From a virus (Duplodnaviria; Caudoviricetes), in IMG/VR virus record IMGVR_UViG_3300031996_000001, positions 18,692 through 82,691 of that record: a stretch of 64,000 nucleotides of DNA, one strand, 5' to 3'. The position numbers and the translations under genes were made by a program. This document shows, piece after piece, positions 1-64,000 of the stretch. Under the pieces are notes generated by a model. That model saw nothing but the letters and a program-made list of their open reading frames with translations. It did not search any database and was not told the DNA's origin. Numbering within the stretch: the first letter of the stretch is position 1; every line of letters begins with the position of its first letter.

Positions 1-2260
1 CGTCGCGGCGCACCCGGTAGGACGCGACCCCGGCGTCATCGGTGCTGGGCGTCCAGCTCACCGTGATCTGGGTCGTCCCGGTCGGCGTGGCCGTGACGTT
101 GCCGGGCTCGGTGGGCGGCGCGACGTCGAAGGTCTTGCTGAGCGTGACCCGCTCGGTGTTGGTCGTGTCCCGGCCGGAGTAGCGGATGGTGATCGCCGTG
201 CCGGTGTCGGTGATGTCGAGCAGGCCGTGCTGCTGCTCGGTGGTGCCGACGGTGGCCTGGGTCGGCCAGGTGCCCTGCGAGTAGGGGCCGCCCTTGATCG
301 AGGTGGAGTTGCCCAGCGGCGCGGCGCCAGCGACCGGCAGCGAGCCGGTGTTGCCGATGCTCGTGCCGTCGTCGGCCAGCAGCGCGTGCGAGTCGCCGTG
401 GATCAGGAAGACCTTGGCGTTGGCCGTGTGGATGGCGTCGACCAGCCGCTGCGCGGCGGCCTTGTAGCCGCCCCACTTGTCCGAACCAGCGGTCGCCACC
501 TCGACATACGGGACGTCCAGGCAGATGACCTTGACCGGGTAGGCCGGGTCGGCCAGCTCGGCGGCGATCCAGGCCTCCTGGGCCGTGCCGAACATCGTCT
601 TGCTGGCGTTGTCCGTCGCCGAGGACGGGCTCTTGAACGACCGGCCGTCGGTCAGGATGAACTTGACCCGGCCGCGCCCGAAGGACCGGTAGATGCCGCC
701 GGTCGGCAGGTCGGCGTCGACCGGGATGACCTCCCGGTAGGCGGCGTTGTAGCTCGGGGTCCAGGCGGCCGGGCCGCCGGTCCAGTCGTTGTTGCCCGAG
801 TCGTGGTCGGACCACTGGTAGGCCAGCGGCATCCGGGTCAGGACGTCGTGCAGGCCGCTGTTGACCGCGATCTGGTTCTCGATCGAGGTCTGGTGAGTGG
901 CCTGGGTGGTCGAGGTGCTGTTGTCGTAGTGCCAGTCGCCGAGGTGCAGGAACAGGTCCGGGGCGTTGGCCAGGATGTTGTCGAAGGACGTCCGGGTGGT
1001 GTTGCCCGAGGTCAGGCAGGACGCGAAGGCGACCCGGAAGCTCTTGACCGCCCCCGGGTTGTCGGTGGTGAACCGGCCGATCGACGTGGAGAGCACGCCG
1101 TCGACCTCGACCTGGTACCAGTACGCGGTGTCCGGCTGCAGGCCGACGATCATGTGACGGCTGTACTGGGAGACGTCCGGCACCTGCACGGGGGTGTAGC
1201 CGACGCCGGTTGACATGCCCGCGTCCTGGGCGACCTTCAGCCGCACCTGGGAGGCGTAGGCGGTCTTCACCGAGACCGGGACCGAGTTGCCCGTCGGGGT
1301 GCCCGCGATGGCGAAGACCAGGCTGCCGCTCGGCGCCGGGGTGGTGACCGAGGCAGCCGCCGACTCCACCGAGCGGTTCCCGGCCGCGTCGGCGGCCGAG
1401 ACGGTGTAGCTGTAGGTGGTCTGCGCGGTCAGCCCGGTGTCCACGAACGACGTGCCGGTGACCGTGGCGACGTCGACCCCGCCCCGCCGCACCCGGTAGC
1501 TGGCCACGGCGGTGTCGTCGGTGCTCGGGCTCCAGGCGACGGTGACCTGGGTCGGCGAGTTGACGGTGGCGGTGACGTTGCTCGGGACGGTGGGCGACAC
1601 CAGGTCGCCGGTGCCGACCTTCGTGCCGGGCCGGAAGGCCACCCCGAGGGAGACGGCAGCGTTGCTGGTCGCGTTGGTCTTGGTGAACTTGGCGGAGCCG
1701 GTCGCCCCGGCGACGGGGAACCCCTCGTAGGCGCTCTCCATCCGCCGCCCGATGCCGGTGGTGTCCAGGATGAGCGTCGTGCCGGGCGGCGGGGTGAAGT
1801 CGTCGGCGGTGACCGCCAGGACCGCCGCCGCGTAGATGACCAGCTCGTTGGCGAGCGTGGTGGTCATCGACGGCACGGTCGGACCGGCGGTGCTGCTGGT
1901 GGCGTTGTTGGCGGTGACGTCGATCGGAGTGGTCGTGTCAACCGCGTTCAGCCGCATCATCTGGGCCGAGATGCGGCTCGCGCCGCTGGTGTTGAAGCCG
2001 GAGAAGGTGTAGCTGGTCGGTTCGCTGGCGGTGGCCCAGCGGTAGAACAGGGCCATGTTGATGCCGACGTTGGTTGACGACTTGCCCAGGGTCCAGCCCG
2101 CCGGGGTGGCGGGCACGGTCGCCGTGGAGGTGGACTCCGCAACGAGGGCGACCAGCAGCTCACCAGCGAGAACCCCACCGGGGACCGCGATGGTGATCGC
2201 TGTGCCGGTGGAGACCTCGGCGAGCGTGGGGCTCCCGGCGATGAACGGCATCTGAGTCAC
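1..2260 (-). CDS. Virion/minor tail protein with FN3 domains and PhoD-like alkaline phosphatase domain (runs off window start)
   Basis: Own translation from GTG 2260, open to position 1: Thr/Ala-rich beta N-terminus, FN3 (PTVPSNVTAT..VAWSPSTDDTAVASYRV..YSYTVSAADAAGNRS), PhoD motifs FRVAFASC, DLFLHLGDWHY, WSDHD, FILTDGRSFK, LIHGDSH, then a second FN3. Confidence 0.85.
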   Translation of the reverse strand, partial: MTQMPFIAGSPTLAEVSTGTAITIAVPGGVLAGELLVALVAESTSTATVPATPAGWTLGKSSTNVGINMALFYRWATASEPTSYTFSGFNTSGASRISAQMMRLNAVDTTTPIDVTANNATSSTAGPTVPSMTTTLANELVIYAAAVLAVTADDFTPPPGTTLILDTTGIGRRMESAYEGFPVAGATGSAKFTKTNATSNAAVSLGVAFRPGTKVGTGDLVSPTVPSNVTATVNSPTQVTVAWSPSTDDTAVASYRVRRGGVDVATVTGTSFVDTGLTAQTTYSYTVSAADAAGNRSVESAAASVTTPAPSGSLVFAIAGTPTGNSVPVSVKTAYASQVRLKVAQDAGMSTGVGYTPVQVPDVSQYSRHMIVGLQPDTAYWYQVEVDGVLSTSIGRFTTDNPGAVKSFRVAFASCLTSGNTTRTSFDNILANAPDLFLHLGDWHYDNSTSTTQATHQTSIENQIAVNSGLHDVLTRMPLAYQWSDHDSGNNDWTGGPAAWTPSYNAAYREVIPVDADLPTGGIYRSFGRGRVKFILTDGRSFKSPSSATDNASKTMFGTAQEAWIAAELADPAYPVKVICLDVPYVEVATAGSDKWGGYKAAAQRLVDAIHTANAKVFLIHGDSHALLADDGTSIGNTGSLPVAGAAPLGNSTSIKGGPYSQGTWPTQATVGTTEQQHGLLDITDTGTAITIRYSGRDTTNTERVTLSKTFDVAPPTEPGNVTATPTGTTQITVSWTPSTDDAGVASYRVRRD

Positions 2261-2326
2261 GCGGCACCACCGGGCATGGTCAGATGATGGCAGGCGGTGA
2301 TCGAGCGATGACGCCGCGCGACGGGG

Positions 2327-2488
2327 TCAGCTCCTCGGCAGGCTGCTCTGCGGGGTCAGATCACAACTCTCGCAGACCGCCCAGGCGGTGGCCTTCCCCT
2401 CCTTGCTGGCCGGGTGGACCACCACGTACTGCCGCTGCCCGCCGCAGCAGTTGCACTTGCGCGTCCGGTTCAGCTGCAGCTCGGCCAT
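2327..2488 (-). CDS. Small Cys-rich hypothetical protein
   Basis: MAELQLNRTRKCNCCGG..VCESCD, two CxxC-like pairs, abuts upstream stop. Confidence 0.5.
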   Translation of the reverse strand: MAELQLNRTRKCNCCGGQRQYVVVHPASKEGKATAWAVCESCDLTPQSSLPRS

Positions 2489-2489
2489 C

Positions 2490-2849
2490 TCACTCGCCGC
2501 CGCCCCCGTGCACCGGCTTCCCCGCCTGGGTCCAGCCGCTGGTCGCGTAGGCCCGCACCTTCTTGCTGAAGTGCCGGGCCAGCTCGGTGGGGACGTCCCC
2601 GTTGTGGATCATCAGCTGGCGCATGAACTCGTGGATCGAGTAGTGGCCGTTGCAGCAGACCGAGATCCGGTTGGCCGCGACGTTCGGTCCGCCGAGGCCT
2701 TCGGGCCAGACGTGGTGGGACTCGATCGGCACCCACTCGCGGTGCCGGTGGACGACGCACTCCTCGCCCATCGGCATGGTCGCCACCAGGTGGGCATGGC
2801 CCGCATCGTGGATGCTGGGCTCAGCTACCGACTGCGCGTTCGCCGTCAC
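2490..2849 (-). CDS. HNH-endonuclease-like protein
   Basis: ESHHVWPEGLGGPNVAANRISVCCNGHYSIH matches the HNH pattern. Confidence 0.65.
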   Translation of the reverse strand: MTANAQSVAEPSIHDAGHAHLVATMPMGEECVVHRHREWVPIESHHVWPEGLGGPNVAANRISVCCNGHYSIHEFMRQLMIHNGDVPTELARHFSKKVRAYATSGWTQAGKPVHGGGGE

Positions 2850-2950
2850 ACACAGAGAGTGTCATGGGCGGGTCGAGGGTTCGGTCCCGCCGCAGTGGCA
2901 TCCGAAGTGCCTGCGCGAACACGGCGACGAGAGCATCCTCGACCCGGGCT

Positions 2951-3316
2951 TCACGCTTCTGTCTCTGGGCCGCGACCTCGTCCATGAGCGCAGTGTGCGG
3001 GATCGACTCCGCTCTCCCGGGGACCTCGGTCGTTCCCTGCGCTCGCGCGTGTCGCTACAGCGGCTGTACCGAGATCGGCCGGGAAGCACAGGTTGCACCT
3101 GGTTGACACGGTTGAGGGCGCAGTCCCCTCTCGCTGGGTCGGTAACCTCACCGGAAGCCGAGAGCCCGGACCCGCTTCCCAGGGGTCCGGGCTCTTGCGT
3201 TCGTCGGCGATCCGGATGCCGCGACCGATGAACAGCGCGCCCAGCAGGCCCACGGCCAGCCAGGCGCCCAGCCCGATCAGGACGATCGTGAGCAGGAAGA
3301 ACCAGTCGATGATCAT
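2951..3316 (-). CDS. Hypothetical membrane protein
   Basis: MIIDWFFLLTIVLIGLGAW.. N-terminal TM; ATGA overlap with upstream gene; 3' part has poor codon bias. Confidence 0.4.
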   Translation of the reverse strand: MIIDWFFLLTIVLIGLGAWLAVGLLGALFIGRGIRIADERKSPDPWEAGPGSRLPVRLPTQREGTAPSTVSTRCNLCFPADLGTAAVATRASAGNDRGPRESGVDPAHCAHGRGRGPETEA

Positions 3317-3546
3317 CGGGCTCCCTGGTTGGTCTCCTCGTCCTGCTTGGCTTCCACCCGCGCCGCCTGCCAGGCCGAGAACGACCCCAGGAACAGCGCG
3401 ATCATCGAGACGAAGCTGACGAAGATGACGCTCTCCAGCCAGCCCAGGGCGTAGGCCACGGCGGTGAACGGCAGCCAGAACGCCGTGCACCAGCCGTGGA
3501 AGGCCCGCAGGAAGTTCGGGCGCCCGAACAGCGCGAAGATCCTCAC
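3313..3546 (-). CDS. Hypothetical membrane protein
   Basis: MRIFALFGRPNFLRAFHGW.. two hydrophobic segments; GTGA overlap. Confidence 0.6.
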   Translation of the reverse strand: MRIFALFGRPNFLRAFHGWCTAFWLPFTAVAYALGWLESVIFVSFVSMIALFLGSFSAWQAARVEAKQDEETNQGAR

Positions 3547-3719: not shown

Positions 3720-3994
3720 GCCGCTGCCACCGCCAGCAGCTCGATGTCCTCGTCGCCGAGGTCCATGTCAACCGAGCACGGGCACCAGCCGGGGCACATC
3801 GCGGCGACGCCCTGGTGCACGCCCAGCTTCTCGAAGACCCAGCACTTCAGCTCGTCGGGGGCGTTGAGCCAGTCGGTGAGCAGGACCGGTCGCAGCGCGA
3901 GGAGCGCGAGGGCCGTCCGGACCACGCGACCTCCACGGCCATCCAGAGCGCGGTCCCGAAGGCCAGCCAGTCGCTCCACCGCAGGTGCACTCAC
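3716..3994 (-). CDS. Hypothetical protein
   Basis: ORF track; 4-bp overlaps on both sides. Confidence 0.55.
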   Translation of the reverse strand: MSAPAVERLAGLRDRALDGRGGRVVRTALALLALRPVLLTDWLNAPDELKCWVFEKLGVHQGVAAMCPGWCPCSVDMDLGDEDIELLAVAAA

Positions 3995-4083: not shown

Positions 4084-4805
4084 GGCGCGACCCGGCCGAA
4101 CTCGCAGAACGCGGCGTGGGTGATCGGCATCAGGGTCTCCAGGGCGTCCTCGTACCCCGCCGCGACCTGCTGGATCTCCCACATCGGCTTGCTCGGGTAG
4201 GCCGCCGCCGGGTCCTCGGTGCGCAGGCTCAGGAAGGCCATCAGCGACCGGGCGTTGCAGGTCGTCCAGTAGGTGGTCATCAGGTTGACCGGCAGCACCA
4301 TCCGGGCCACCTCGCGGGCGACGCCGCTGGCCAGCAGCGACTCGTACTCGCGGAAGGCCTCCCGGGCCAGCCGGGACAGCGAGCCGGTCACCTGGGCCCG
4401 CTGGAGGTAGCTGCCGGGCTGGATGTCGTAGGACATCGCCTTGCCGACCTGGGTCAGCCCGCGCTCGCTCGGGGGGATGTAGAACGTCGGGTCGAAGGCC
4501 TTGAACCGGCCGGACTCGCCGTTGTAGCTCCAGCCGATGCGGTGCCGCAGGTGCTCGGTGGCCACGCAGAGCGGCATCTGCACCCGGAAGCTGAAGGAGT
4601 TGTGCTCGAACGGGCTGCCGTGTCGGTCGCGCATCAGGGCCCGGATCAGGCCTTCCACCGGCCGGTCGATGTCCTCGGCCATCTGCCCGGCGGTTGACAC
4701 GCGGGCGGCCGAGGCTACGAAGGCGTCCCGGGCGTTGGCGCTGGAGACCAGCTCGACGCTGATCTGACTGGTGAGCTGAACGTCCTGCACATCACTGGCT
4801 GCCAC
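4080..4805 (-). CDS. thyX: FAD-dependent thymidylate synthase ThyX
   Basis: HGSPFEH, EHLRHRIGWSYNGESGRF, EVARMVLPVNLMT..NARSLMAFLSLR signature motifs. Confidence 0.95.
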   Translation of the reverse strand: MAASDVQDVQLTSQISVELVSSANARDAFVASAARVSTAGQMAEDIDRPVEGLIRALMRDRHGSPFEHNSFSFRVQMPLCVATEHLRHRIGWSYNGESGRFKAFDPTFYIPPSERGLTQVGKAMSYDIQPGSYLQRAQVTGSLSRLAREAFREYESLLASGVAREVARMVLPVNLMTTYWTTCNARSLMAFLSLRTEDPAAAYPSKPMWEIQQVAAGYEDALETLMPITHAAFCEFGRVAP

Positions 4806-5007: not shown

Positions 5008-5465
5008 CGGACCAGCGCTACCCGGGCGCGCGGCTGCTCACGCAGGTCCGGGATCACCCAGCCCCGTCGGGTCATGTCGTTGACGACGTCGGTCTTGTAG
5101 CCGATCGCCAGGCCCGCCTCCACCAGCTTCCAGGCGTCGCGGGTCTGCACCCGCATGTAGGGCAGGCAGCCGTGCAGGACGATCGTTGCGCGGGCCCCAG
5201 TGACCTGCCAGCGCAGCGAGGAGGACTCGATGCGCATGTGTTTGTCCGGGCAGTGCTCGGTGCACTGATGGCGGTTGTAGGCCTTCGGGATCGAGCGCAC
5301 CTTGACCCCGGTGACCAGGGCCAGCCAGTCCAGCGCGGCGATCCGCCCCTGGATGGTCACCTCGGGCAGGCCGGTCCCCCGGTAGTCCCGTACCCGGAGC
5401 ACCGCGAAGGAGTCGACCAGGGCGGCGGCGTAGGCCAGGTCAGCGGGCTCCAGTTTGGTTGACAC
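5004..5465 (-). CDS. Degenerate LAGLIDADG-fold protein
   Basis: ADLAYAAALVDSFAVLRV resembles a LAGLIDADG helix; ..LRWQVTGARATIVLHGCLPYMRVQ; likely start GTG 5465. Confidence 0.55.
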   Translation of the reverse strand: MSTKLEPADLAYAAALVDSFAVLRVRDYRGTGLPEVTIQGRIAALDWLALVTGVKVRSIPKAYNRHQCTEHCPDKHMRIESSSLRWQVTGARATIVLHGCLPYMRVQTRDAWKLVEAGLAIGYKTDVVNDMTRRGWVIPDLREQPRARVALVR

Positions 5466-6651: not shown

Positions 6652-6690
6652 TGTTGACACTGTTGACACGAAGGGTGCATACTCTCCGCA
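6652..6690 (+). promoter_or_regulatory. SigA-like leaderless promoter with tandem TTGACA
   Basis: TTGACA 6654-59, second TTGACA 6663-68, CATACT 6678-83, 6 nt, ATG 6690. Confidence 0.85.
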
Positions 6691-6950
6691 TGGTCACTTG
6701 CCCGAGCTGCGGTCACGCCTTCCACCCGAAGGCCTGCACCCCCTGCCCACCCGAACCGCCCGTCGGCACCTGGATGAAGGACCGCTTCGGCGGCACCACC
6801 CAGCGCCGCGTCTACCAGGGCCACGACGGCTGGGGGCAGCCCGGCGTCTGGAACTACGGCGTCTGGGAGTCCATGTGGGCCGCGCGCGGCCCCTACACCG
6901 AGTGCGGCCCCTGGGGCGCCGAACTGACCACCAACCAGAAGGAGGCCTGA
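6690..6950 (+). CDS. Hypothetical protein (CPSC..CTPC zinc ribbon)
   Basis: Leaderless ATG after promoter. Confidence 0.65.
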   Translation: MVTCPSCGHAFHPKACTPCPPEPPVGTWMKDRFGGTTQRRVYQGHDGWGQPGVWNYGVWESMWAARGPYTECGPWGAELTTNQKEA

Positions 6951-6951: not shown

Positions 6952-7347
6952 ATGGCCCAGCGTGTGATCACCTACGTCCAGTACACCGACGACCTGACCG
7001 GCGAGGAGTTCGGCGAGCAGGACGGCGAGACCGTCGTCTACGCCATCGACGGCGCGCACTACGAGATCGACCTGGTCGCCTCGAACGCCAAGGCGCTGCG
7101 CGAGCTGCTGGCGCCCTACCTGCAGGTGTCCCGCAAGACGGTTGACACGCGCGGCCGGAAGCTCGTGAAGGGCGGCGGTCAGGGCACCCACCCGGAGAAG
7201 AAGCGCCGCCGGACCAAGGACGAGATGGCGCGCATCCGCGCCTGGGCCAAGGAGAACGGCTACCCGACCGGGGAGAACACGACCACGCCCAACCGCGTCC
7301 CCTTCGACACCGTGCAGGCCTACGCCCGGCTGGTGGAGGAGGCGTGA
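6952..7347 (+). CDS. lsr2: Lsr2-like nucleoid-associated protein
   Basis: YTDDLTG..YAIDGAHYEIDLVASNAKALRELLAPY and IRAWAKENGY..RVP..VQAY motifs; AGGAGG RBS. Confidence 0.9.
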   Translation: MAQRVITYVQYTDDLTGEEFGEQDGETVVYAIDGAHYEIDLVASNAKALRELLAPYLQVSRKTVDTRGRKLVKGGGQGTHPEKKRRRTKDEMARIRAWAKENGYPTGENTTTPNRVPFDTVQAYARLVEEA

Positions 7348-7565: not shown

Positions 7566-7598
7566 CATTGTTGACAAGCGTGCCATACCATGAGGGCA
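7560..7598 (+). promoter_or_regulatory. SigA-like leaderless promoter with tandem TTGACA
   Basis: TTGACA 7562-67, TTGACA 7571-76, TACCAT 7586-91, 6 nt, ATGACGCAG 7598. Confidence 0.85.
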
Positions 7599-56068: not shown

Positions 56069-56077
56069 CCCCGCACA

Positions 56078-56116: not shown

Positions 56117-56126
56117 GTGTCAACCG

Positions 56127-56387: not shown

Positions 56388-58978
56388 GGCGTCACCCCCT
56401 GCTTCTGCCTGTCGGCGTCGGTGAGCCCCTTCTCCGCCTCAGCCGTCAGCGCGGGCAGGTCGGGGGACGTCTTCGAGTATACAAGTCGGGGATCACGTTT
56501 ATCAACACTGTTATCCCAGACCTGCCAGTTGTCGAACTGGTCGCGCAGCGCCTCGAAGTTCTTGCGGTTGGCCGAGGAGAACGACGTGGAGGCGTTCTTC
56601 CGGATCACCGACGGCGGGACGTACCGGCCGCCCGCGCCCTTGCCGTTGCGGTAGGCCTCCATGCCGCGCTGGTAGCGCGACATCGCCCGGGTGACCGAGC
56701 CCTCCACCGGGATGTCCACGAAGATGGCGTCCAGGTTGGTGTAGCCGTTCTTCTTCATCTCGGCGATGCGCTTGGCCACCGACCCCTCGGAGGCCATCGT
56801 GATGTCCCAGGTGACGTTCTTCTTGTCGGCGTAGGCCAGCTGGGCCAGCAGGTTGGCGATGTGGCTGGACTCCTCGTGGATCAGGGCGACCTTCTCCATC
56901 GGGGACAGCTTCACCTCCCCCGGGATCTCGGGGATCATGCCGCGCTCGGCCAGGATCTCCTTGATGTCGTCGGGGTTGATCGTCAGGAACTGGGACTGGT
57001 CGATGCCGGTCTTCGGGTTGCCCAGCGTGGTCGTCTTGCCCGCGCCGCCCAGCCCGCCGGAGAACAGGCCCTTGCCCTCGTTCGGGACGTGCGCGGCCTT
57101 CGCGTAGAGGTCCTGGACGATCTCGTTGTGCAGCTTGGCCCGCTCGGGCGCCCAGACCTGGCCCTTGCCGTCCAGACTGAACTGCGCGTCGGTTGACAGG
57201 CCCGCCTTGACGGCCGCGTCGACCTGGGACTCCACCGCCTCGACGTGCTTCTTCAGCTCCTCGTCGGTCAGCGGCGGCACCGGCTGGTGCGGTCCGGCCA
57301 TCGGCACCTGCGCTCCGTGCGGCACGGCCACCGTGTGCTGCTGACCGGACTGGGTGTCGGTGGCCGTCACGGTGTGCCCGGTGGCGTTCTTGGCGACGCC
57401 GTCGACCTTCAGGGTCTTCTTGGACCCGTCCTTGCCGTAGGCGTGCATCAGGTCGCCCTGGGCCAGCTGGTGACCCTCCTTGGGCAGGAAGTCCGGCCCG
57501 CCCGCCTCGTAGTTCGGGTTCCAGCCCGCCGGGGGTTCAGCGGGCTTGGCCGGGGCCGCCGGTGCCTTGGGCGCCTCGGGCGCTGCGGGCTTGGGAGCCG
57601 CGCCGTGCCCGTGCGGGAGCGGGCCCTCGTGCACCTTCACCGGCGGGTTGCCGGGCAGGTCCTTGGTGCCCGTCTTGCCGTCGGGACCGGTTGACATGAC
57701 CGAGGTGTGCGTGCCGCCGGTGTGCTCGGGCTTCAGGACGCTGCGGGTGACGTGCACGCCGGAGCCGTCCGGGTGGTGGAAGGCCTCCCCCGGCTTCAGC
57801 TCGCTGGCCTTCTTCTCCTTGCCCAGCAGCCCGGCGGTGTGGTCCACCAGGCCCTTGGTGGCGTGGTCCAGCCCCTTGACCGCGTCGCCGTGCCCACCGC
57901 TGGCCAGCTTCTGGACGCTCTTGCCCTCGACCTCCTTGACCTTGCCGGAGGCCTCGCGGACCTTGACGGTCCCCTTCTTGTCGCCCATCCCCTCGACCTT
58001 GCCGGTCACCCCGCCGCCGTGGACGATGTCGCCCACCTCGATGAAGCGCCCGTGCGCGTCGCGCGGGTGGCGCAGCTTGTTCCAGACGCCCGCCGTCAGG
58101 CCGGAGGCGGCCATGCCGGGGTTGGACTGCGCCTCCTGCATCGTCTGGGGCGTGACCGGGGTGAGCTTCTTCTTCCCGGCCGGGGTGGTCCCCATCAGCT
58201 GCTGCCACTGCGCGTTGAGCTTGGCGGCCGACTCGGTCCCGTTGATCAGGGACTCCGCTGCCGCCTCGCGGGCCGCCTCGATCTGCGCGGCGTGCGCCTG
58301 AGCCGTGGCCTGGGCAGCGGCCTGGGCCTGCTGCGCCTTGACCTGGGCAGCCTGCTGAGCGGCGGCCTTGTCGGCCGTCGTCTTCGCCTTGGCCGCCGCC
58401 GCCGCGTCCTTGGCGAGCTTGGCCTGCTGCGCCTTGGCCGCCGCGTCGGCCGCCTTCTGGGTCTTGGTCTGCGCGGCCACGACCTTGTTGTGCGCGGTGA
58501 CCGTGGGGTCGGCCTTCGGGTTGGGGCTGACCACGACGGGGCCGCCGTCGTAGCCGTACTTGTGCGGGTCGATCCCGCGCGCCGCCAGCTCCTGGACCAG
58601 GACGTCCTGGGCCGCCTGGTTGCGGGCGTTGTCCGTCTTCACCGAGAACACCGCGTCGGCCGCCTTGGTCAGGTCGGCGTTGCTCATGTTGTGGGCGTTG
58701 CGGGACATGTCGGACTTCTTGTCCGAGCCCATGAACGTGTCGTAGCTGGCCTGGGCCCCGGCCTGCTGAGCCTTGCCGTGTCCCAGGGGTGCACCGATCG
58801 GCAGGTGGTAGCGCGCCGAACCGGCCGGGGTGGCGACGTGCCGACCCCCGCCGTGAGCCTTCTTCTTGCCGCTACCGCCGGAGGCGAAGTCCGCCGCCGT
58901 GCGACCGTTCGAGGTGCGCAGCGCGTCCTGCGCGGCGACCAGCGCCCCGGCAGCCACCCCGGCGGTGGCCGAAGCCAC
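56384..58978 (-). CDS. Head-module multidomain protein with C-terminal Zeta-toxin-like P-loop kinase
   Basis: HVATPAG..YHLPIG; Ala/Lys coiled coil; HPRDAHGRF; SH3/KOW-like repeats; SGGLGGAGKTT, INPDDIKE, IHEESS, WDIT. Confidence 0.85.
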   Translation of the reverse strand: MASATAGVAAGALVAAQDALRTSNGRTAADFASGGSGKKKAHGGGRHVATPAGSARYHLPIGAPLGHGKAQQAGAQASYDTFMGSDKKSDMSRNAHNMSNADLTKAADAVFSVKTDNARNQAAQDVLVQELAARGIDPHKYGYDGGPVVVSPNPKADPTVTAHNKVVAAQTKTQKAADAAAKAQQAKLAKDAAAAAKAKTTADKAAAQQAAQVKAQQAQAAAQATAQAHAAQIEAAREAAAESLINGTESAAKLNAQWQQLMGTTPAGKKKLTPVTPQTMQEAQSNPGMAASGLTAGVWNKLRHPRDAHGRFIEVGDIVHGGGVTGKVEGMGDKKGTVKVREASGKVKEVEGKSVQKLASGGHGDAVKGLDHATKGLVDHTAGLLGKEKKASELKPGEAFHHPDGSGVHVTRSVLKPEHTGGTHTSVMSTGPDGKTGTKDLPGNPPVKVHEGPLPHGHGAAPKPAAPEAPKAPAAPAKPAEPPAGWNPNYEAGGPDFLPKEGHQLAQGDLMHAYGKDGSKKTLKVDGVAKNATGHTVTATDTQSGQQHTVAVPHGAQVPMAGPHQPVPPLTDEELKKHVEAVESQVDAAVKAGLSTDAQFSLDGKGQVWAPERAKLHNEIVQDLYAKAAHVPNEGKGLFSGGLGGAGKTTTLGNPKTGIDQSQFLTINPDDIKEILAERGMIPEIPGEVKLSPMEKVALIHEESSHIANLLAQLAYADKKNVTWDITMASEGSVAKRIAEMKKNGYTNLDAIFVDIPVEGSVTRAMSRYQRGMEAYRNGKGAGGRYVPPSVIRKNASTSFSSANRKNFEALRDQFDNWQVWDNSVDKRDPRLVYSKTSPDLPALTAEAEKGLTDADRQKQGVTP
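56476..56505 (-). promoter_or_regulatory. Internal SigA-like promoter in 3' end of kinase gene
   Basis: TTGATA(56505-00)-18nt-TATACT(56481-76), encoded by a run of rare codons. Confidence 0.7.
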
Positions 58979-58995: not shown

Positions 58996-61890
58996 TCAGA
59001 CGTTTCCCAGGCCTGCCGGGACACCCGGGGCCGCCGGAGCAGCCGGAGCAGCCGGAGCAGCCTTGGGCGCCGCGTCCTTCTTCTTCGGCTTCTTGACCTT
59101 GCCCGCCGCGAGGTCGTCGGCGAACGCCTTGGCGTCGCCCGCGTAGTCCCCGTGCAGCGACTGGACGGCCTCGTCGTGCTTCAGGTCGCCGATCGGCATC
59201 TTCCCGGCCAGCATCGCGTTGATGGCCTCCGGCGCGAGGCCGGGCAGCGGGGCGGCGTACTCGGTGTCGGGGTCGGTGTCGTCACCGGCGCCCGGGTCCG
59301 CGCCGCCGTCGGTGTCGGCGTCCTCGACGCTGGCAGAGCCGGAGTCGGCGGCACCGTCGGAGACCGGGGTGACCTCCTTCTTCTTGGCGAACGGCGGGGC
59401 ACCGTCGGCCGCGACCGGGACCTTGCCGTGCACCCGCTCGCGCAGCGCGAGGCGACGCGACTCCATGTCGGCCTTGCGCGCCGCCACGGCCTCGCGGGCC
59501 CGGCGGACGGCGTCGGAGACCTGCGGCTCCTCCGCCACAGCCGCCGGGGGCTCCTCGCCCGTGTCAACCGGCTCGCCCTCGGCGACCGGCTCCAGGGTCA
59601 GGGCCTCCTCGATCTCGCCCTCCAGCTCGGGGCTGACGACTACCGCCGGAACGCCCTCGCCGGGCGCACCGTCGGCCTCGATCGCCATGTCCGGCTCGCC
59701 GACCAGGGACTCCTGGTTCTGGCCGTAGACGAAGTTCTCCAGCTCGGCGATCCGGGCCGCCAGCTCGGCGTCGGCCAGCAGCGCGAGCTTGCGGGCGGCC
59801 AGCGGGCGGGCGCCAGCGGCGACCAGCGCGGTGATCGCACCGGAGGCCACGCGAGCGCGGGCGACCGGGAAGCCGGGCACGTTGACCTGGCAGCAGGCGA
59901 CCAGCTCCAGGTGGCCGTTGATCGGCCGCCAGTCACCGGACGGGGCCGAGGCGCGCAGCGTGCGCAGCTGCTGCGGGGTCACCTCGGGACGGGTCGCACC
60001 GGCCACCCAGATGCCGTAGCGGTCCTCGCCGATGTTGAGGTCGCAGACGCTGGAGGCGGTGTTGTCGTAGTGCGCCACGGCCGCGCTGGCGTCGGCGTTG
60101 AGCGGCGCGTGCCCACCGGAGAGGGTCAGCTGGCCGACGTTGATCTTCGCGCCGGAGGCGGTGACCAGCTGGCCGGTCTTGAAGTAGGCGTAGTCCGACC
60201 GCGACTTCGGGGCGTGCACGCGGCCGGGCAGGCCGATGTGCGCGACGTCGAAGGTGGCGATGTGGCCGTAGACCCGGCCGTCGTCTTCCACGGTGAGCGG
60301 CGTGGGGCCGTCCAGCTGCGGGTTGGCGAACCACTCGTCGGGCGGGTTGACCGGGAAGCCCCCGGCGGTGAGGGTGCGGAGCAGGGTCACGTTCTCCCCT
60401 GCCTCGGCGTAGACGCCGTCCTTCAGGGTCATGCCCTTGTCTCCACTTCCGTCCGGTCCCAGCCAGGACCCGGTTGACACAGAGGCCACGAGTGCGGCCT
60501 CCAGGGACAGAGCCGGTCGGGGAGCCCCGGCGGCCGTGACGTGCGACCGGTGGCCGTTGCCACCGGGGTTCTTGGCGTTGCCGGTCCAGATGCCGGTCGC
60601 GCGCTTGTGGAGGTTCTGGCAGTAGCCCTTGGCCCGCGTCCCCATGAACTTGGAGAGGTGCCGGTAGCAGCGCTTCCAGTCCCCCGGAGTGCCCCAGCGG
60701 ACCTTGACGCCGCCCTTGCCGGAGGTCCAGTAGCGGCGCAGCTTCTCAGCGCGCGGGTCCGGGCTGACGGTCAGCGGGACCTTGTCCCCGGCGACCAGCG
60801 CGCCGGGCGCTGCGGCGGCGATCGGCCGGATGGCGTCGATGTTCGAGGGGTCCACCGAGCCGTCGGGCGTGCAGCTCGCGGCGGCGGCCTTGGCCTGGTC
60901 CAGGTGGCTGTCGCAGGCCGGGACGTAGGCCATGCCCTCGGAGTGGATGACCCGCTGGGTGGCCTGGTCCTTGCAGAACTCGCACTTCTGCTTCTTGGGC
61001 AGACCGGCGGCGGCCACGGCCTGGCCGCTGCTGTCGATCTGCGACATCACGTTGGTCAGCTGGCTCTCGTCCAGCTCGACCAGCGGCGGCGGGTTGACAC
61101 CCTGCAGCCGGGAGAGCAGGTCGGGGTTCTCCACCCACTTGCCCTGGTCGTAGTCGGCCAGCTCGGGGCCCGGGGCCAGCCGGATCAGGTTGAGCACCGC
61201 GCCGGGGTCCAGGTCGTCCACGACGGCGTACTCGGTCCAGCCGTCGCTCGGACCGGCCGTCACCTTCGCCTCGGACTGCGCCTTGTCGACGTTCTTGGCG
61301 TCCTTGGCCGCAGAGGCCCCGTCCGTGCCCTCAGCGGGCGCTGCAGCCGCCGTGAAGGCCTCCAGGGCCTCCTGGGCCACGGTCATGGTCTGCGGCGGCA
61401 GGAAGGCCTTGGGCCAGTAGAAGCGCCGCACCAGGCCGGTGGCCCCAGCGGTCAGCGCCTCGGCCAGGTCCCCGGCCAGCTCCTCGTCCAGGATCTCCAG
61501 CCGCTGGTCCCAGACCGGCGTGTAGGGCGCCCACGCGCCCGCGACCAGCTGCTCGTAGCCGCCCTCGCCCTCGCGGCGCAGCAGGCCGGTGAGCAGGTCG
61601 GGGTCGTTGGCGTCGGTGAGGCCGTAGAAGCCCAGGTCCACGCAGTCGGGGCAGTCGACCTTGTCGCGGTAGCGCTCGACGGCGGAGGCGACGATGGCGT
61701 CGATGGTCTTCTCGGCCCAGGCCGCTGCGCCTGGCATCGCCGAGGCGCGCAGCTCGAACAGGTCCCAGGCGCGGATGGTGCCGGTTGACACGCGCTGGGC
61801 GAGGGAGCCCTCAGAGGAACGGGCCGCTTCGCGGAGCGTCCGAGTCGGCAGATGCTGGCGATCGAACCCAGCCATCAGCAGAGGCGGCAC
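58996..61890 (-). CDS. Capsid maturation protease fusion protein
   Basis: RRYW..WGTPGDWKRC..GYCQNLH domain; PPDEWF.P.L.GPTPLTV..GRVYGH.A; LSGDWR-like PSGDWR..LELV..VNVPGFP; start GTG 61890 with AGGAGG RBS. Confidence 0.8.
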   Translation of the reverse strand: MPPLLMAGFDRQHLPTRTLREAARSSEGSLAQRVSTGTIRAWDLFELRASAMPGAAAWAEKTIDAIVASAVERYRDKVDCPDCVDLGFYGLTDANDPDLLTGLLRREGEGGYEQLVAGAWAPYTPVWDQRLEILDEELAGDLAEALTAGATGLVRRFYWPKAFLPPQTMTVAQEALEAFTAAAAPAEGTDGASAAKDAKNVDKAQSEAKVTAGPSDGWTEYAVVDDLDPGAVLNLIRLAPGPELADYDQGKWVENPDLLSRLQGVNPPPLVELDESQLTNVMSQIDSSGQAVAAAGLPKKQKCEFCKDQATQRVIHSEGMAYVPACDSHLDQAKAAAASCTPDGSVDPSNIDAIRPIAAAAPGALVAGDKVPLTVSPDPRAEKLRRYWTSGKGGVKVRWGTPGDWKRCYRHLSKFMGTRAKGYCQNLHKRATGIWTGNAKNPGGNGHRSHVTAAGAPRPALSLEAALVASVSTGSWLGPDGSGDKGMTLKDGVYAEAGENVTLLRTLTAGGFPVNPPDEWFANPQLDGPTPLTVEDDGRVYGHIATFDVAHIGLPGRVHAPKSRSDYAYFKTGQLVTASGAKINVGQLTLSGGHAPLNADASAAVAHYDNTASSVCDLNIGEDRYGIWVAGATRPEVTPQQLRTLRASAPSGDWRPINGHLELVACCQVNVPGFPVARARVASGAITALVAAGARPLAARKLALLADAELAARIAELENFVYGQNQESLVGEPDMAIEADGAPGEGVPAVVVSPELEGEIEEALTLEPVAEGEPVDTGEEPPAAVAEEPQVSDAVRRAREAVAARKADMESRRLALRERVHGKVPVAADGAPPFAKKKEVTPVSDGAADSGSASVEDADTDGGADPGAGDDTDPDTEYAAPLPGLAPEAINAMLAGKMPIGDLKHDEAVQSLHGDYAGDAKAFADDLAAGKVKKPKKKDAAPKAAPAAPAAPAAPGVPAGLGNV

Positions 61891-61892: not shown

Positions 61893-62291
61893 TCAGCCCT
61901 CCTGAGTCGTCACCTGCCGATCTGGTGCCACGAAGCGAGCCAGACCCTGCAGTTCCTTCACCTGGTCGCGTGTCAGCACTCTCTGCCACTGCGCCGCACT
62001 CACAGTATCGGTGAAGGAATCTGGGACCGGGACGTAATCCCAGCGATCAGCCAGCTCGTCCAGGCTGCTCGCGGAGGGCCGGATGGCGAACTGCGCGCCC
62101 TGCACGGCGGTCTTCAGGGCGTCGAAGCTGCCGGTCCCCTGGCGCAGCGCCTCGATGGCGTCGCGGACCGGCTGGACGTTCACGCCCTGGGGCTGCGGCG
62201 GACGGAAGCTCTCGGTCTCCGGCGCGACGCCCTGCTCCTCGTCGGTGCCGTAGTAGTCCTCCGCCGTCCGGGCGTCGCGGACCGGCTTCAC
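61893..62291 (-). CDS. Small acidic partner of Zeta-like kinase (putative antitoxin/immunity)
   Basis: ATGTGA overlap with kinase gene; similar to 56127-56387. Confidence 0.7.
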   Translation of the reverse strand: MKPVRDARTAEDYYGTDEEQGVAPETESFRPPQPQGVNVQPVRDAIEALRQGTGSFDALKTAVQGAQFAIRPSASSLDELADRWDYVPVPDSFTDTVSAAQWQRVLTRDQVKELQGLARFVAPDRQVTTQEG

Positions 62292-64000
62292 ATGCCCTCC
62301 TCGGGCTGCAGGTCGGCCACGGCCGAGGCCGACACCCCGCTGCCATCGTCCTCCGACGGGTAGAAGCCGGGCATGTTGCCCACGTCGGCCACGGTGGTCG
62401 CCGTGCCCGACAGGAACTTGGGCTCCTCACCCGAGTTGTCCCAGATGGCCCAGCGCTGGAAGACCGGCTTGATCGTGTCGAAGTTGACCGCGTTGACGCT
62501 GTTGAACTTCTCGGCCAGCGGGTCGTCCTTGGACAGCGTGTTCTTGGCGATCAGCGAGCCGGGGACCACCCGGCCGCCGAACTGCACCGCGTCCTTGGCG
62601 GCGCCCTCGGTCAGGAAGCCCTGGCGCAGCGCGTCCAGCCCGGCCTGGTGCCGCTTGGCGGCCCGCGTCGCCGAGGTGGTCGGCGGGATGTCCACGAACA
62701 GGCCGTCGACCTTGTAGCCGTTGCCGGTCTTCAGCTGCTGGACGATCTTGGCGACCCAGGGCTCCTCGCCGTCGCGCTCCCGGCCGCCCATCGTGATGTC
62801 GAAGACGACGTTGTAGCCCTCGGCGATCAGCAGCTGCTCCAGCATGTGGTTCATCTCGGAGCTGGCCTCGTGCAGCAGGGACGCCGTCTCGGCCGGGGAG
62901 AGGCCGACGATGTTGGGGAACATCCCCTTCTGCAGCATCAGCTCCTTGAAGTCGTCGGGGTTGGCGACGACCCACTCCTCCTTGCGGAGCATCCGGGCCT
63001 TCTGCATCGCGTCCAGCGTCGTGGACTTCCCGGCGCCGGGCATCCCGCCGAGCATGATCGCGCGCTTGTTCTTCGGCTTCGTCTCGTTGGCCGTGGCCGT
63101 CTGGAAGACCTCGTTGACGGTCTGCTCGAAGAACTGGTGGGCCTCCTCCGACCACAGGCCGTAGGAGTCCTTCAGCGCCTTGTCGAAGCTCAGCTTCGCC
63201 TTGATCGCGTCGTCGGTGACCTGGTTGACATAGCCCTGGTGGGCGATGAAGTCGGAGGCCGAGACGGGGCCCTGACCAGGCTTGATGACCGCCGCCTGGT
63301 CCCCGTACTCCGTGCCGTACTTCGTGGCCGCCTCCCGGTTGAACGCGCTGATCGCGCTGCTGTACTCCTCCAGCGTCTTGGCCGGGGCGTAGCTGTTGGC
63401 GGCGAACTCGTCGGCCGCCGACTGGCCCTCCACCTGCGGGTAGTGGGTGTGGCCGTCCCGCTCGCCGGTGGCCGGGTCCAGGTGCGCCTTCGGCTGCGGG
63501 GCCGTGGCGATCTTGTCGCCCAGCTGGTCCACCGGGATGATCGAGGGGTAGCCCGCCGCCTCGTCCTCCGGGACGTGCTGCGGCTTGCCGTCCGGGCCGG
63601 GGTGCACCGCGTCGAAGTAGGAGACGTAGGCGCCCTGCGGCGTCAGCCGGTCGATCTTGGCGCGGCGGCGCCGGGCGTGCGGGTCGTTCAGGCGACCCAG
63701 GTCCCCGTCACCGAAGACGTTGACCCAGGTGTCCTTGACGATGAACTGGCCGTCCTTGCCGCGCGGGTGCAGCCAGTCCTGCCACCGCGACGCCGTCAGC
63801 ACGGCCGGATCCTGCAACAGACCACTGACACGCGCGCCAGCGACGATCGACGCGAACATGCCGCGCGGCGGCCGGTGCCCGGCGGCGACCAGGTCGCTGA
63901 ACAGCCGGGCGCGCTGGCGCACCTGCTCGGCTGCCGCATGAGAGGGATTATAGTCCCCCGTGTCAACCGCCTGAGCTGCGGCTACATCTCCAGCTCCGCC
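62288..64000 (-). CDS. Head-module protein with Zeta-toxin-like P-loop kinase (5' end outside window)
   Basis: Frame open to 64000; HPRGKDGQF; LGGMPGAGKST, ANPDDFKE, LHEASS, FDIT. Confidence 0.85.
   Translation of the reverse strand, partial: GGAGDVAAAQAVDTGDYNPSHAAAEQVRQRARLFSDLVAAGHRPPRGMFASIVAGARVSGLLQDPAVLTASRWQDWLHPRGKDGQFIVKDTWVNVFGDGDLGRLNDPHARRRRAKIDRLTPQGAYVSYFDAVHPGPDGKPQHVPEDEAAGYPSIIPVDQLGDKIATAPQPKAHLDPATGERDGHTHYPQVEGQSAADEFAANSYAPAKTLEEYSSAISAFNREAATKYGTEYGDQAAVIKPGQGPVSASDFIAHQGYVNQVTDDAIKAKLSFDKALKDSYGLWSEEAHQFFEQTVNEVFQTATANETKPKNKRAIMLGGMPGAGKSTTLDAMQKARMLRKEEWVVANPDDFKELMLQKGMFPNIVGLSPAETASLLHEASSEMNHMLEQLLIAEGYNVVFDITMGGRERDGEEPWVAKIVQQLKTGNGYKVDGLFVDIPPTTSATRAAKRHQAGLDALRQGFLTEGAAKDAVQFGGRVVPGSLIAKNTLSKDDPLAEKFNSVNAVNFDTIKPVFQRWAIWDNSGEEPKFLSGTATTVADVGNMPGFYPSEDDGSGVSASAVADLQPEEGM
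63947..63966 (-). promoter_or_regulatory. Possible internal promoter: TTGACA-8nt-TATAAT
   Basis: TTGACA 63966-61, TATAAT 63952-47 inside an open frame written with rare codons. Confidence 0.45.

Follow-up and report, generated by a model that had tools for sequence, protein, structure and literature searches.

Genome-wide occurrence of the word GGTTGACA in an uncultured actinophage

An uncultured high-GC phage of actinobacteria and five related phage genomes carry one 11-letter DNA word about once per kilobase through their own genes, evenly spaced and in either orientation, and a one-letter variant of the word sits on their early promoters. It would appear, from sequence evidence alone, that a still unidentified protein probably reads the whole phage chromosome. 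The window, i.e., the whole stretch of DNA that was analysed, comprises 64 kb (bases 18692-82691) of a virus record of 82,691 bases with 70% GC. The observation that a GGTTGACA(C/T/G) word is dispersed over the window, which came from a sequence-only reading, was confirmed and could be extended to the complete genome.

In the window GGTTGACAC occurred 44 times, whereas 0.44 copies were expected from dinucleotide shuffles (maximum 5), and GGTTGACA followed by C, T or G occurred 61 times (1.0 expected), the first copy at 1208 and the last at 63968, as the sequence-only reading had stated. The word runs through all of the record, with 79 copies of GGTTGACA and 58 of GGTTGACAC, and it is the most frequent 8-mer to 12-mer of the genome. 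The sequence logo extended the word to the asymmetric consensus Y-GGTTGACA-Y-S with an exact core; position -1 was C in 55 and T in 21 copies, position +9 was C in 58 and T in 14, and position +10 was G in 53 and C in 21. Nothing was conserved beyond these positions, and no -10 element was present. The copies in the window were as follows (sense and antisense refer to the gene).

1208-1216 (+), box CGGTTGACATG, in gene, antisense (M-S-T)
1935-1943 (-), box CGGTTGACACG, in gene, sense (A-V-D-T)
3101-3109 (+), box TGGTTGACACG, between called genes
3765-3773 (-), box CGGTTGACATG, in gene, sense
4692-4700 (+), box CGGTTGACACG, in ThyX gene, antisense (V-S-T)
5457-5465 (+), box TGGTTGACACA, on a gene's start codon (GTG TCA ACC)
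7140-7148 (+), box CGGTTGACACG, in Lsr2-like gene, sense
8899-8907 (-), box TGGTTGACATG, on a gene's start codon (ATG TCA ACC)
9726-9734 (+), box CGGTTGACATG, in gene, antisense
10225-10233 (-), box CGGTTGACACT, in dCTP deaminase gene, sense (R-L-T)
10807-10815 (+), box CGGTTGACACG, in gene, antisense
11517-11525 (-), box TGGTTGACATC, in gene, sense; kept at the same place in G001 (G001 and G002 are two of the related word-bearing genomes)
12521-12529 (-), box TGGTTGACACA, in gene, sense
14135-14143 (-), box CGGTTGACACG, in gene, sense
14363-14371 (+), box TGGTTGACACC, in gene, antisense
16323-16331 (-), box TGGTTGACATG, across a gene junction
16678-16686 (+), box CGGTTGACAGC, in gene, antisense
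17082-17090 (+), box CGGTTGACACC, in gene, antisense
18492-18500 (-), box CGGTTGACAGG, in gene, sense
19117-19125 (+), box CGGTTGACAGC, between called genes
19667-19675 (-), box TGGTTGACACC, second to fourth codon of a gene, sense
20386-20394 (-), box CGGTTGACACC, in gene, sense
21115-21123 (+), box CGGTTGACACC, in gene, antisense
23202-23210 (-), box CGGTTGACACG, in DUF3987 helicase gene, sense
24482-24490 (-), box CGGTTGACACG, in Prim-Pol gene, sense; kept in G001 and G002
25637-25645 (-), box TGGTTGACACC, in gene, sense
26026-26034 (-), box CGGTTGACACG, in gene, sense
27257-27265 (-), box CGGTTGACACG, in gene, sense
28732-28740 (-), box TGGTTGACATG, on the start codon of the AAA_24 (Sak4-like) gene
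29617-29625 (-), box TGGTTGACACG, in gene, antisense
30466-30474 (+), box TGGTTGACACG, in DNA polymerase gene, sense
30926-30934 (+), box TGGTTGACACC, in DNA polymerase gene, sense; G002 has the synonymous GGTGGACA here
32391-32399 (+), box CGGTTGACAGC, in gene, sense
33247-33255 (+), box CGGTTGACACG, in SNF2 gene, sense
34196-34204 (-), box CGGTTGACACG, in SNF2 gene, antisense
34450-34458 (+), box AGGTTGACATG, in SNF2 gene, sense
35446-35454 (-), box CGGTTGACACC, in the conserved 96-aa gene, antisense
35992-36000 (+), box CGGTTGACATG, bridges a stop codon and the next start codon
37150-37158 (-), box CGGTTGACACG, in gene, antisense
38258-38266 (-), box TGGTTGACACG, in the clade-specific 286-aa gene, antisense
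40092-40100 (+), box CGGTTGACACC, intergenic, in the loop of a GC hairpin
41086-41094 (+), box CGGTTGACACG, intergenic, kept in G001 and G002
41471-41479 (-), box CGGTTGACATC, inside the winged-helix candidate gene, sense
42796-42804 (+), box CGGTTGACACG, in tail gene, antisense
43860-43868 (-), box CGGTTGACACG, in tail gene, sense
46271-46279 (-), box TGGTTGACACG, in tail gene, sense
47298-47306 (+), box CGGTTGACACG, in the 1132-aa gene, antisense
47715-47723 (+), box CGGTTGACACG, in the 1132-aa gene, antisense
49566-49574 (+), box CGGTTGACACG, in the 1132-aa gene, antisense
51503-51511 (-), box CGGTTGACACG, in gene, sense
52395-52403 (-), box CGGTTGACACG, intergenic, kept in G001 and G002
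53585-53593 (-), box CGGTTGACACG, intergenic just upstream of the capsid gene's ribosome site, kept in G001 and G002
56117-56125 (-), box CGGTTGACACG, just after a stop codon and before a terminator-like hairpin
57191-57199 (+), box CGGTTGACAGG, in zeta-like gene, antisense
57689-57697 (+), box CGGTTGACATG, in zeta-like gene, antisense
59561-59569 (-), box CGGTTGACACG, in the 931-aa gene, sense
60472-60480 (+), box CGGTTGACACA, in the 931-aa gene, antisense, kept in G001 and G002
61092-61100 (+), box GGGTTGACACC, in the 931-aa gene, antisense
61783-61791 (+), box CGGTTGACACG, on the start codon of the 931-aa gene, kept in G001 and G002
63223-63231 (+), box TGGTTGACATA, in zeta-like gene, antisense
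63960-63968 (-), box CGGTTGACACG, between called genes near the contig end

Selection acts on the DNA and not on the protein. Of the 79 copies in the genome, 66 (84%) were located in coding sequence according to our own gene calls, 35 in sense and 31 in antisense orientation and in four frames (VDT, RLT/WLT, VST/MST, VN); the flanks Y and Y-S held in every frame. Shuffling of synonymous codons within genes left about 2.5 coding copies. Rare codons exist largely for the word, since 26 of the 45 GTT codons of the genome were found in it, as well as 20 of 30 TCA, 9 of 27 ACA and 9 of 34 TTG codons. The frame TGT CAA, which had been listed in the sequence-only reading, was not used in this genome (0 of 66). 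The core is sharp; 79 exact cores were found against at most 10 for any single mismatch other than the promoter variants described below.

The copies were spaced far more evenly than random. The coefficient of variation (CV) of the gaps was 0.586, compared to 0.99 for random placement (0 of 5000 simulations as low), and the minimum gap was 147 bp. The pitch is about one copy per kb, and not one per gene as had been proposed; long genes held 3-5 copies and about half the genes held none. The longest gaps in the window were 2.5 kb (53593-56117) and 2.4 kb (43868-46271), both longer than the 2.1-kb gap at 21123-23202 which had been taken for the longest. Orientation was random along four genomes (runs tests not significant), and coding copies in four genomes split into 107 sense and 99 antisense. 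The union of sites was evenly spaced, with a pooled CV of 0.56, 13 gaps under 400 bp against 74 expected and 5 gaps over 3 kb against about 25, whereas each strand on its own was no more even than after shuffling of the orientation labels.

The same word was present at similar density, 0.66-0.96 per kb, in the phage described here and its five relatives (G000, G001, G002, G005, G006 and G009), whose GC contents range from 64 to 71%. It was absent from two equally related phages, G007 and G008, which have capsids 63-65% identical, and from 44 further, more distant relatives, and it was at background level in 401 genomes of Actinomycetota. Thus, the array is specific to one phage clade rather than to the host phylum. 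It is maintained by selection rather than by descent alone, since only 16 of 28 (G001) and 9 of 27 (G002) alignable sites were kept, yet density was kept, and density was equal in core and accessory genes (0.88 and 0.92 per kb).

A one-base variant, HGTTGACA, forms the -35 box, plus a second box inside the spacer, of about a dozen leaderless promoters, as inferred from sequence. Non-GG boxes fell into two classes, 15-18 nt and 7-9 nt before a -10-like hexamer, in all four complete genomes; by contrast, 78 of 79 GG boxes had no -10. Tandem boxes numbered 11, 11, 9 and 5 in the word-bearing genomes and 1 and 0 in the word-free relatives. The same GTTGACA box also stands at a promoter position where sigma region 4 cannot be the reader, which suggests, although indirectly, a dedicated box-binding factor other than sigma. 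The following promoters were found in the window.

6654-6692 (+), TGTTGACA boxes at 6654 and 6663 (18 and 9 nt before CATACT), leaderless ATG (end approximate)
7562-7600 (+), two boxes (16 and 7 nt before CATACC), leaderless ATGACGCAG at 7598
13896-13932 (-), two boxes (16 and 7 nt before CATACT), leaderless start at 13898
15826-15876 (-), two boxes (18 and 9 nt before TATAGT), leaderless GTGACGCAG
17877-17914 (-), TTGACG at the -35 place, perfect box 7 nt before TATAGT, leaderless start at 17879
37441-37478 (+), two boxes (17 and 8 nt before TATTCT), leaderless ATGACGCAG (end approximate)
38718-38757 (+), two boxes (18 and 8 nt before CATACT), leaderless start at 38755
39345-39392 (+), three boxes 9 bp apart (the last two 18 and 9 nt before CATACT)
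55402-55440 (+), two boxes (16 and 7 nt before a -10-like hexamer), leaderless ATG (end approximate)

Of the six candidate genes which had been named in the sequence-only reading, the one at 9329-9712 (a LuxR/GerE HTH) was absent from the other phages that carry the word, and only 41302-41529 and 35230-35520 were conserved across the clade. The candidate readers, for which the assignment rests on sequence comparison only, are the following.

41302-41529 (-), 75-aa winged-helix-like protein, best candidate reader; recognition helix QRVASRLK and wing GGPANGPG are invariant in five word-bearing genomes and different in two word-free relatives; weak match to the Z-alpha winged helix (E 0.025); atlas neighbours are all winged-helix families
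37747-38607 (+), 286-aa protein found in every word-bearing genome, including the one with 64% GC, and in neither word-free relative; second candidate
35230-35520 (+), 96-aa protein, the best-conserved small protein of the clade (72-75%), without an assigned fold; weaker candidate, because a 43% homologue exists in word-free G007

The analysis shows that the 11-bp asymmetric word is a selected recognition site in duplex DNA; everything that follows, including binding itself, is inferred. The word would be read by one sequence-specific DNA-binding factor which belongs to this phage clade and is most likely phage-encoded, the best candidate being the 75-aa protein, and this factor would read the word whatever its orientation and whatever the direction of transcription. 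The same factor would also read the variant HGTTGACA on the leaderless promoters, where one box sits at the -35 place and a second one 7-9 nt before the -10, where a bound protein would exclude RNA polymerase; in this view, the factor works as an operator-binding regulator of those promoters, probably a repressor. The least certain step is that the factor, through some 80 evenly pitched high-affinity sites, also occupies or marks the whole phage chromosome about every kilobase. Such occupancy could perhaps be a non-polar roadblock, shielding, compaction, a mark that tells phage DNA from host DNA, or a titration buffer for the promoter switch. This reading as a whole is tentative, with a probability of about 0.45.

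Other readers have to be considered. The core of the word is the consensus -35 hexamer, so host sigma A is a ready alternative; with the host unknown, a host-specific factor cannot be excluded. The link of the candidate protein to the word is only co-occurrence within one clade that shares many genes. No protein of the clade carries a Pfam DNA-binding domain that would predict a TTGACA-like site, and the only protein of LuxR/sigma-region-4 type is confined to G000, the phage described here. An array that blocks transcription in both directions would hinder a lytic phage's own late genes, so the roadblock version needs an extra assumption.

The interpretation given in the sequence-only reading, i.e., that one protein coats the whole genome as a non-polar stoperator-like repressor, as an organising or protecting factor, or as a sink for a host regulator, was supported in part: selection on the DNA, the lack of polarity, the even genome-wide distribution and, indirectly, one dedicated reader were borne out, while coating, organisation, protection, repression and involvement of a host factor remain possibilities on present evidence. 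The word is not USS-, Chi- or nick-like. Membership of the L5-type stoperator system was not supported, since no homologue of gp71 was present and no integrase was found, and since the sites of this array are intragenic and non-polar.

The IMG/VR virus record to which the window belongs (bases 18692-82691 of 82,691; referred to as G000) has a GC content of 70% and is estimated to be 94% complete. It encodes a family A DNA polymerase, a Prim-Pol, a DUF3987 helicase, an SNF2 helicase, a PD-(D/E)XK nuclease, an AAA_24 (Sak4-like) protein, a large terminase, ThyX, a dCTP deaminase, an Lsr2-like protein and a LuxR-type protein. The large terminase lies at the left end of the record (G000 1817-3406, outside the window) and the rest of the head operon at the right end; thus, the contig breaks inside the structural operon, which fits a circularly permuted or circular assembly. 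A megablast search with 25 kb against 50,697 phage records gave no match, and the nearest cultured phages, i.e., phages of Arthrobacter, Microbacterium and Gordonia, share only about 32% DNA polymerase identity. These relatives and the Lsr2 domain place the virus among phages of Actinomycetota. A profile of the capsid protein found nothing in 185,579 species genomes, and ThyX gave one Streptomyces genome at 51% identity, which was used only as a centre for the phylum-wide count described below and not as a host assignment. No tyrosine or serine integrase (PF00589, PF00239) was found in G000 or in the three complete related genomes G001, G002 and G006, and no partition gene appeared among about 70 proteins scanned with Pfam, a scan that was not directed at partition families; a lytic life style is the simplest reading.

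The observation made in the sequence-only reading, a word dispersed over the whole stretch, was confirmed. GGTTGACAC occurred 44 times in the window against 0.44 expected, and GGTTGACA followed by C, T or G occurred 61 times against 1.0 expected. The whole record contained 79 copies of the 8-mer, which is the commonest 8-mer of the genome. Aligned copies gave the consensus Y-GGTTGACA-Y-S and nothing else within 25 bases on either side; in particular, there was no -10 element. Based on our own gene calls (117 genes, 89% coding), 66 copies were located inside genes, 35 sense and 31 antisense, using four of the five stop-free frames. Shuffling of synonymous codons within each gene left about 2.5 coding copies. 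The word accounted for 26 of the 45 GTT codons, 20 of the 30 TCA codons, 9 of 27 ACA and 9 of 34 TTG codons in the genome. Selection is therefore on the DNA. Single-mismatch variants of the core were not enriched (at most 10 each), except for changes of the first G, which are the promoter boxes described below. Several copies occupied particular positions:

40084-40110, intergenic copy which forms the loop of a GC-rich hairpin (stem ggccccc/gggggcc)
56090-56125, copy between a stop codon and a terminator-like hairpin
5457, 8899, 28732 and 61783, and position 3398 of G000, starts of five genes, among them the large terminase and the AAA_24 gene, which begin with (G/A)TG TCA ACC, so that the reverse of the word supplies their start codon and the residues Ser-Thr

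In G000 the coefficient of variation (CV) of the gaps was 0.586, whereas random placement gave 0.99 and never fell below 0.70 in 5000 trials. Pooled over four complete genomes (270 gaps) the CV was 0.56, with 13 gaps under 400 bp against 74 expected and 5 gaps over 3 kb against about 25 expected. Orientation along the genome was random by runs tests and did not alternate; 34 copies were on the plus strand and 45 on the minus strand in G000, with similar splits in three other genomes. Each strand alone was no more evenly covered than when orientation labels were shuffled. Over the four genomes, 206 of 274 copies were inside genes, 107 sense and 99 antisense. Among the non-coding copies an excess of sense orientation (39 to 14) was seen, but this is probably an artefact, since antisense copies contain GTG/ATG and are called as start codons, and it was not relied upon. 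The constraint is therefore one site per stretch of duplex in either orientation, which argues against strand-reading processes such as priming, nicking, Chi and polar transcription stops, and favours a reader of double-stranded DNA.

Relatives found through the polymerase and capsid proteins fell into two groups. The array was present, with the same consensus, in G001 (70 copies in 85 kb), G002 (66 in 86 kb), G006 (59 in 90 kb) and in the fragments G005 (15 in 18 kb) and G009 (28 in 39 kb, only 64% GC). It was lacking in G007 (107 kb, 3 copies) and G008 (0 copies), although their capsids are 63-65% identical to that of G000, which is as close as G002. The array was also lacking in 44 further relatives of a tail protein and in the more distant polymerase relatives. 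A search for a different dispersed word in word-free relatives found none of comparable strength; G007 contained 12 copies of GAGCAAAGGA, against about 0.15 expected from base composition. In a partial 14-mer scan of IMG/VR, only members of the clade were rich in the word. Two nearly identical contigs, L150 (10845-10981) and L158 (9001-9137), represent an unrelated 58% GC phage with four copies of CTGTGGTTGACAGC within 130 bp, one of them inverted, which look like clustered iterons or operators. A phylum-wide sample of 401 Actinomycetota genomes had at most about 36 copies per genome, equal to the reversed-word control, and the result was the same without the 15 unpublished genomes of this sample. 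Thus, in the genomes searched, the word is a property of one phage clade and not a host uptake, Chi or architecture word. Where site surroundings could be aligned at 70-75% nucleotide identity, 16 of 28 sites were kept in G001 and 9 of 27 in G002, which is more than neutral decay would leave, but far from all. The sites kept in all three genomes included most of the intergenic and start-codon copies. Elsewhere, one genome has the word where another has a synonymous non-word, for example, GTT GAC against GTG GAC. Genes unique to G000 carried 0.92 copies per kb and shared genes 0.88; density and pitch are what is maintained.

Every TTGACA in the four complete genomes but one was preceded by G. 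An avoidance of TTGACA without a preceding G was considered and dropped, since high-GC relatives have only 0.03 TTGACA per kb and about 1 per genome would be expected anyway. Boxes preceded by GG are the dispersed copies, and 78 of 79 had no -10-like hexamer within 24 nt. The 33 others in G000 were almost all intergenic and fell into two sharp classes. One class lies 15-18 nt before a CATACT/TATAGT-like -10, the normal -35 place; the other lies 7-9 nt before it, inside the spacer. The two usually form a tandem pair 9 bp apart, in front of a leaderless start which often reads (A/G)TGACGCAG. The arrangement of a sigma-70-type promoter, a -35 hexamer with a -10 hexamer 16-19 bp downstream, is not shown by the GG boxes, but is shown by the non-GG boxes. 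About a dozen strong sigma-70-like promoters with a TTGACA box at -35, a second box 9 bp downstream inside the spacer, a CATACT/TATAGT -10 and a leaderless start are predicted from the sequence, at the following places in the window:

6654-6692, promoter
7562-7600, promoter
13896-13932, promoter
15826-15876, promoter
17877-17914, promoter
37441-37478, promoter
38718-38757, promoter
39345-39392, promoter with three boxes
55402-55440, promoter

The same two classes appeared in G001, G002 and G006. Tandem pairs numbered 11, 11, 9 and 5 in the array-bearing genomes, against 1 and 0 in G007 and G008; array and tandem boxes are inherited together. Region 4 of the sigma factor of a polymerase using that -10 cannot occupy the spacer box. 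Its conservation is therefore the best, though indirect, evidence for a separate protein that reads GTTGACA. A protein bound there would act as an operator-bound repressor.

Proteins conserved in all array-bearing genomes were compared with those of the array-free relatives, in order to find a candidate for the reader. The following genes of the window, the candidates and others noted in passing, are described here:

41302-41529, 75-aa protein, predicted winged helix
37747-38607 (+), 286-aa protein with a predicted alpha/beta N-terminal domain
35230-35520, 96-aa protein, the best-conserved small protein
11222-11632, TerS-like protein
6952-7347 (+), Lsr2-like protein (dimerisation domain, E 1e-18)
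9329-9712 (-), LuxR/GerE-type HTH protein (E 3e-17)
56384-58978 (-) and 62288-63802 (-), two large head-module proteins with a zeta-toxin-like P-loop domain (E 4e-15 and 1e-18)
37548-37727 (+), 59-aa gene, the N-terminal part of a longer protein in G001, G002 and G006

The 75-aa protein looks like a stand-alone winged helix; its profile matched the Z-alpha winged helix weakly (E 0.025), and its Atlas neighbours were all winged-helix families. Its presumed recognition helix (QRVASRLK) and wing (GGPANGPG) are invariant in five array-bearing genomes, while its 34%-identical homologues in G007 and G008 differ exactly there. That helix pattern was found in no other viral contig. The 286-aa protein is present in every array-bearing genome, including G009, and absent from G007 and G008. 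Its AlphaFold model has a confident N-terminal alpha/beta domain (pLDDT 80-92), followed by an acidic middle and a basic arginine/lysine tail, but no convincing PDB match was obtained (best matches Foldseek E 0.29 and VIA Z 4.3, on a helical piece), and the Atlas gave unnamed clusters. A homologue of its N-domain lies next to a ThyX homologue in a 38% GC phage contig (L175) that lacks the word. The model of the 96-aa protein has a pLDDT of 87, with a best VIA Z of 4.8, to small nucleic-acid-binding folds, which is not decisive, and the protein exists also in G007. The Lsr2-like and the LuxR-type proteins, which had been considered as readers because of their domains, are confined to G000 within the clade. 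No sigma region 4, WhiB or DNA methyltransferase families are shared by the clade. Homologues of the zeta-toxin-like proteins exist in the array-bearing genomes, including G009, but not in G007 or G008. The longer protein corresponding to the 59-aa gene continues into zinc-finger-like CxxC...H motifs in G001, G002 and G006, and a leaderless in-frame start at about 37476 may extend the gene in G000. These data are co-occurrence within one clade, and the role of any of the candidate proteins as reader is putative.

Taken together, we read the array as a real, strongly selected and clade-specific DNA signal, and this much follows directly from the counts, the codon shuffles and the distribution among genomes. 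It is inferred, from sequence alone, that it most likely works as the binding site of one dedicated duplex-DNA-binding factor which also controls the early promoters; binding itself, and any role of the candidate proteins in it, belong to this inferred part. The interpretation of the sequence-only reading, that one protein coats the whole genome as a non-polar stoperator-like repressor, as an organising or protection factor, or as a sink for a host regulator, was supported only in part. A more far-reaching possibility, which appears doubtful, but is not ruled out by the data, would be that an apparently lytic phage clade addresses its entire chromosome with an orientation-blind, evenly pitched array of about one high-affinity site per kilobase for a small phage-encoded DNA-binding protein. 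The result would be a sequence-programmed coat, a kind of phage chromatin, that tells phage DNA from host DNA. The coat could serve shielding from host nucleases or silencers, compaction, or selective handling of phage DNA, and it would double as the switch that closes the early promoters through a lower-affinity variant of the same word. No such system is known to have been described for any virus of bacteria, and literature searches for the word and for similar arrays found no description.

Other explanations were considered. The reader could be the host RNA polymerase holoenzyme, the dispersed words being perfect -35 hexamers without a -10, bound by region 4 of the principal sigma factor, alone or with a host partner such as WhiA/WhiB; they would then act as landing pads which concentrate host polymerase on phage DNA, or as a sink which starves the host. 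The invariant core contains TTGACA, the same hexamer is the -35 of the phage's own strong promoters, and 58 of 79 copies also contain GACAC, the WhiA motif, which is read in the same way as sigma region 4 reads the -35 (PMC10243135). Even, orientation-blind coverage would suit a capture antenna, and no conserved phage protein with a known DNA-binding domain was found. However, sigma region 4 reads the hexamer, yet the GG before it and Y-S after it are as conserved as the hexamer, 21 copies lack the last C of GACAC, promoter boxes never carry the GG, and a box is conserved 7-9 nt before the -10, where sigma region 4 cannot sit on that promoter. Relatives with equally similar capsids use TTGACA promoters, but have no array and almost no tandem boxes, and we infer that about 80 sites per genome would be a small sink for an abundant sigma factor. 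This explanation appears unlikely, although it is the strongest of the alternatives. Still less likely is a strand-specific enzymatic signal, e.g., a start site for the phage Prim-Pol primase, a site-specific nick, or a Chi-like stop signal for a helicase-nuclease. The core is exact, as for enzyme recognition sites, the pitch of about 1 kb resembles the length of Okazaki fragments, the phage encodes a Prim-Pol, a DUF3987 helicase, an SNF2 helicase and a PD-(D/E)XK nuclease, and conserved nick-associated words exist in other phage groups (PMC11780129). On the other hand, spacing is even only for the union of both orientations, known nick words lie on one strand and are unevenly placed, word-free G007 has homologues of the Prim-Pol, helicase and nuclease, and the word is not enriched in any of the 401 Actinomycetota genomes searched, as a host Chi should be.

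A target of DNA modification, by which a phage or host enzyme would mark phage DNA so that it is told apart from host DNA, would be compatible with an exact and asymmetric 8-11-bp site, with even coverage and with a function that is per length of DNA, and the phage has genes of nucleotide metabolism (ThyX and dCTP deaminase). Yet no N6/N4, C5 or Dam-type methyltransferase was found in four complete word-bearing genomes, ThyX and the deaminase are not shared by the clade, and modification targets are not usually enriched 100-fold; this reading is therefore considered improbable. The same holds, somewhat more so, for molecular drive without a benefit to the phage, whereby a recombination or repair bias would copy the word into neighbouring DNA, as proposed for uptake sequences. 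The turnover of sites at constant density, which is the same in accessory and core genes, would fit, but drive alone does not predict the strong shortage of both short and long gaps, the strict separation of GG boxes from promoter boxes, or the conservation of the identical word across genomes whose proteins are only 45-70% identical. A classical L5-type immunity system, in which a prophage repressor would bind an operator at the early promoter and polar stoperators that stop elongation, thereby maintaining lysogeny, is suggested by an asymmetric site which contains the -35-like TTGACA and is repeated over the genome, with related copies on the early promoters (parallel drawn from PMC9283540 and PMC6550527). 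It is already largely refuted, since the array is non-polar, 75-84% of the copies lie inside genes, it is three times denser than the "more than twenty" sites of L5, and neither a gp71 homologue nor an integrase was found in the searches described here.

If one protein reads this word, these phages carry the densest and most regular array of specific binding sites known in a phage genome, imposed on nearly every kilobase of coding sequence at a visible cost in codon choice. The question of how a virus marks, organises or protects its own DNA inside the cell would then become directly testable, since the word, the promoter variant and a short list of candidate readers are all defined, and since six natural genomes with the array and two close relatives without it serve as controls. 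The array also provides a clean example of selection on DNA words inside genes, which gene finders, codon models and synthetic recoding of high-GC phages would need to respect.

With respect to known systems, the array resembles the DNA uptake sequences of Pasteurellaceae (USS) and Neisseriaceae (DUS) statistically. In these, a short exact word occurs about once per kb, in both orientations, mostly in coding DNA and in several frames, more evenly spaced than chance and with turnover of sites; however, USS and DUS belong to the bacterial chromosome and its competence machinery, whereas the present word is confined to one phage clade and is at background level in the 401 Actinomycetota genomes. 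The nick-associated words of phages T5, phiKMV, tf and Rembedalsseter (WACTRTGAC) are likewise conserved, asymmetric 9-bp words of unknown function, enriched in a whole group of related phages and mostly inside coding sequence (PMC11780129), but they lie on one strand only, number about 10-13 per 45 kb and are clustered toward one genome end, and those of tf-like Pseudomonas phages are single-stranded and unevenly placed; here, both strands are used equally and the word is about six times denser and evenly spread. The core TTGACA(C) is the union of the sigma-70-type -35 element and of the WhiA motif GACAC, which mimics it (PMC10243135); GACAC is the only base-specific element of a WhiA target site, while the invariant GGTT, which WhiA is not known to read, lies outside it, and the invariant GG and the flanking Y and Y-S are not part of either motif. 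The nearest known system is that of the operators and stoperators of Cluster A mycobacteriophages (L5 gp71, Bxb1 gp69, TipsytheTRex repressor) and of Streptomyces phage R4. The L5-type site has a TGTCAA core. It is an asymmetric 13-mer, bound by a monomeric repressor at the early promoter and at more than twenty intergenic sites, predominantly in one orientation relative to transcription (PMC9283540, PMC6550527, PMC10276819). Shared with it are an asymmetric site of 11-13 bp, repeated over the whole phage genome (an 11-bp word with 79 copies in G000), a -35-like core, related copies overlapping the -35 of the early promoter (the one-base variant HGTTGACA on about 12 promoters), and a plausible monomeric reader. 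The present array differs in having 60-80 copies rather than 20-36, in the location of the copies inside genes rather than in promoters and short intergenic spaces, in the lack of orientation bias relative to transcription, in the even spacing, and in the fixed flanking base by which dispersed copies differ from promoter copies. A phmmer search with L5 gp71 against all open frames of eight genomes, which is a test at the sequence level only, gave a best E of 0.5, and no integrase was found in the four complete genomes. In our view, the array represents a non-polar, intragenic and evenly pitched version of the stoperator idea.
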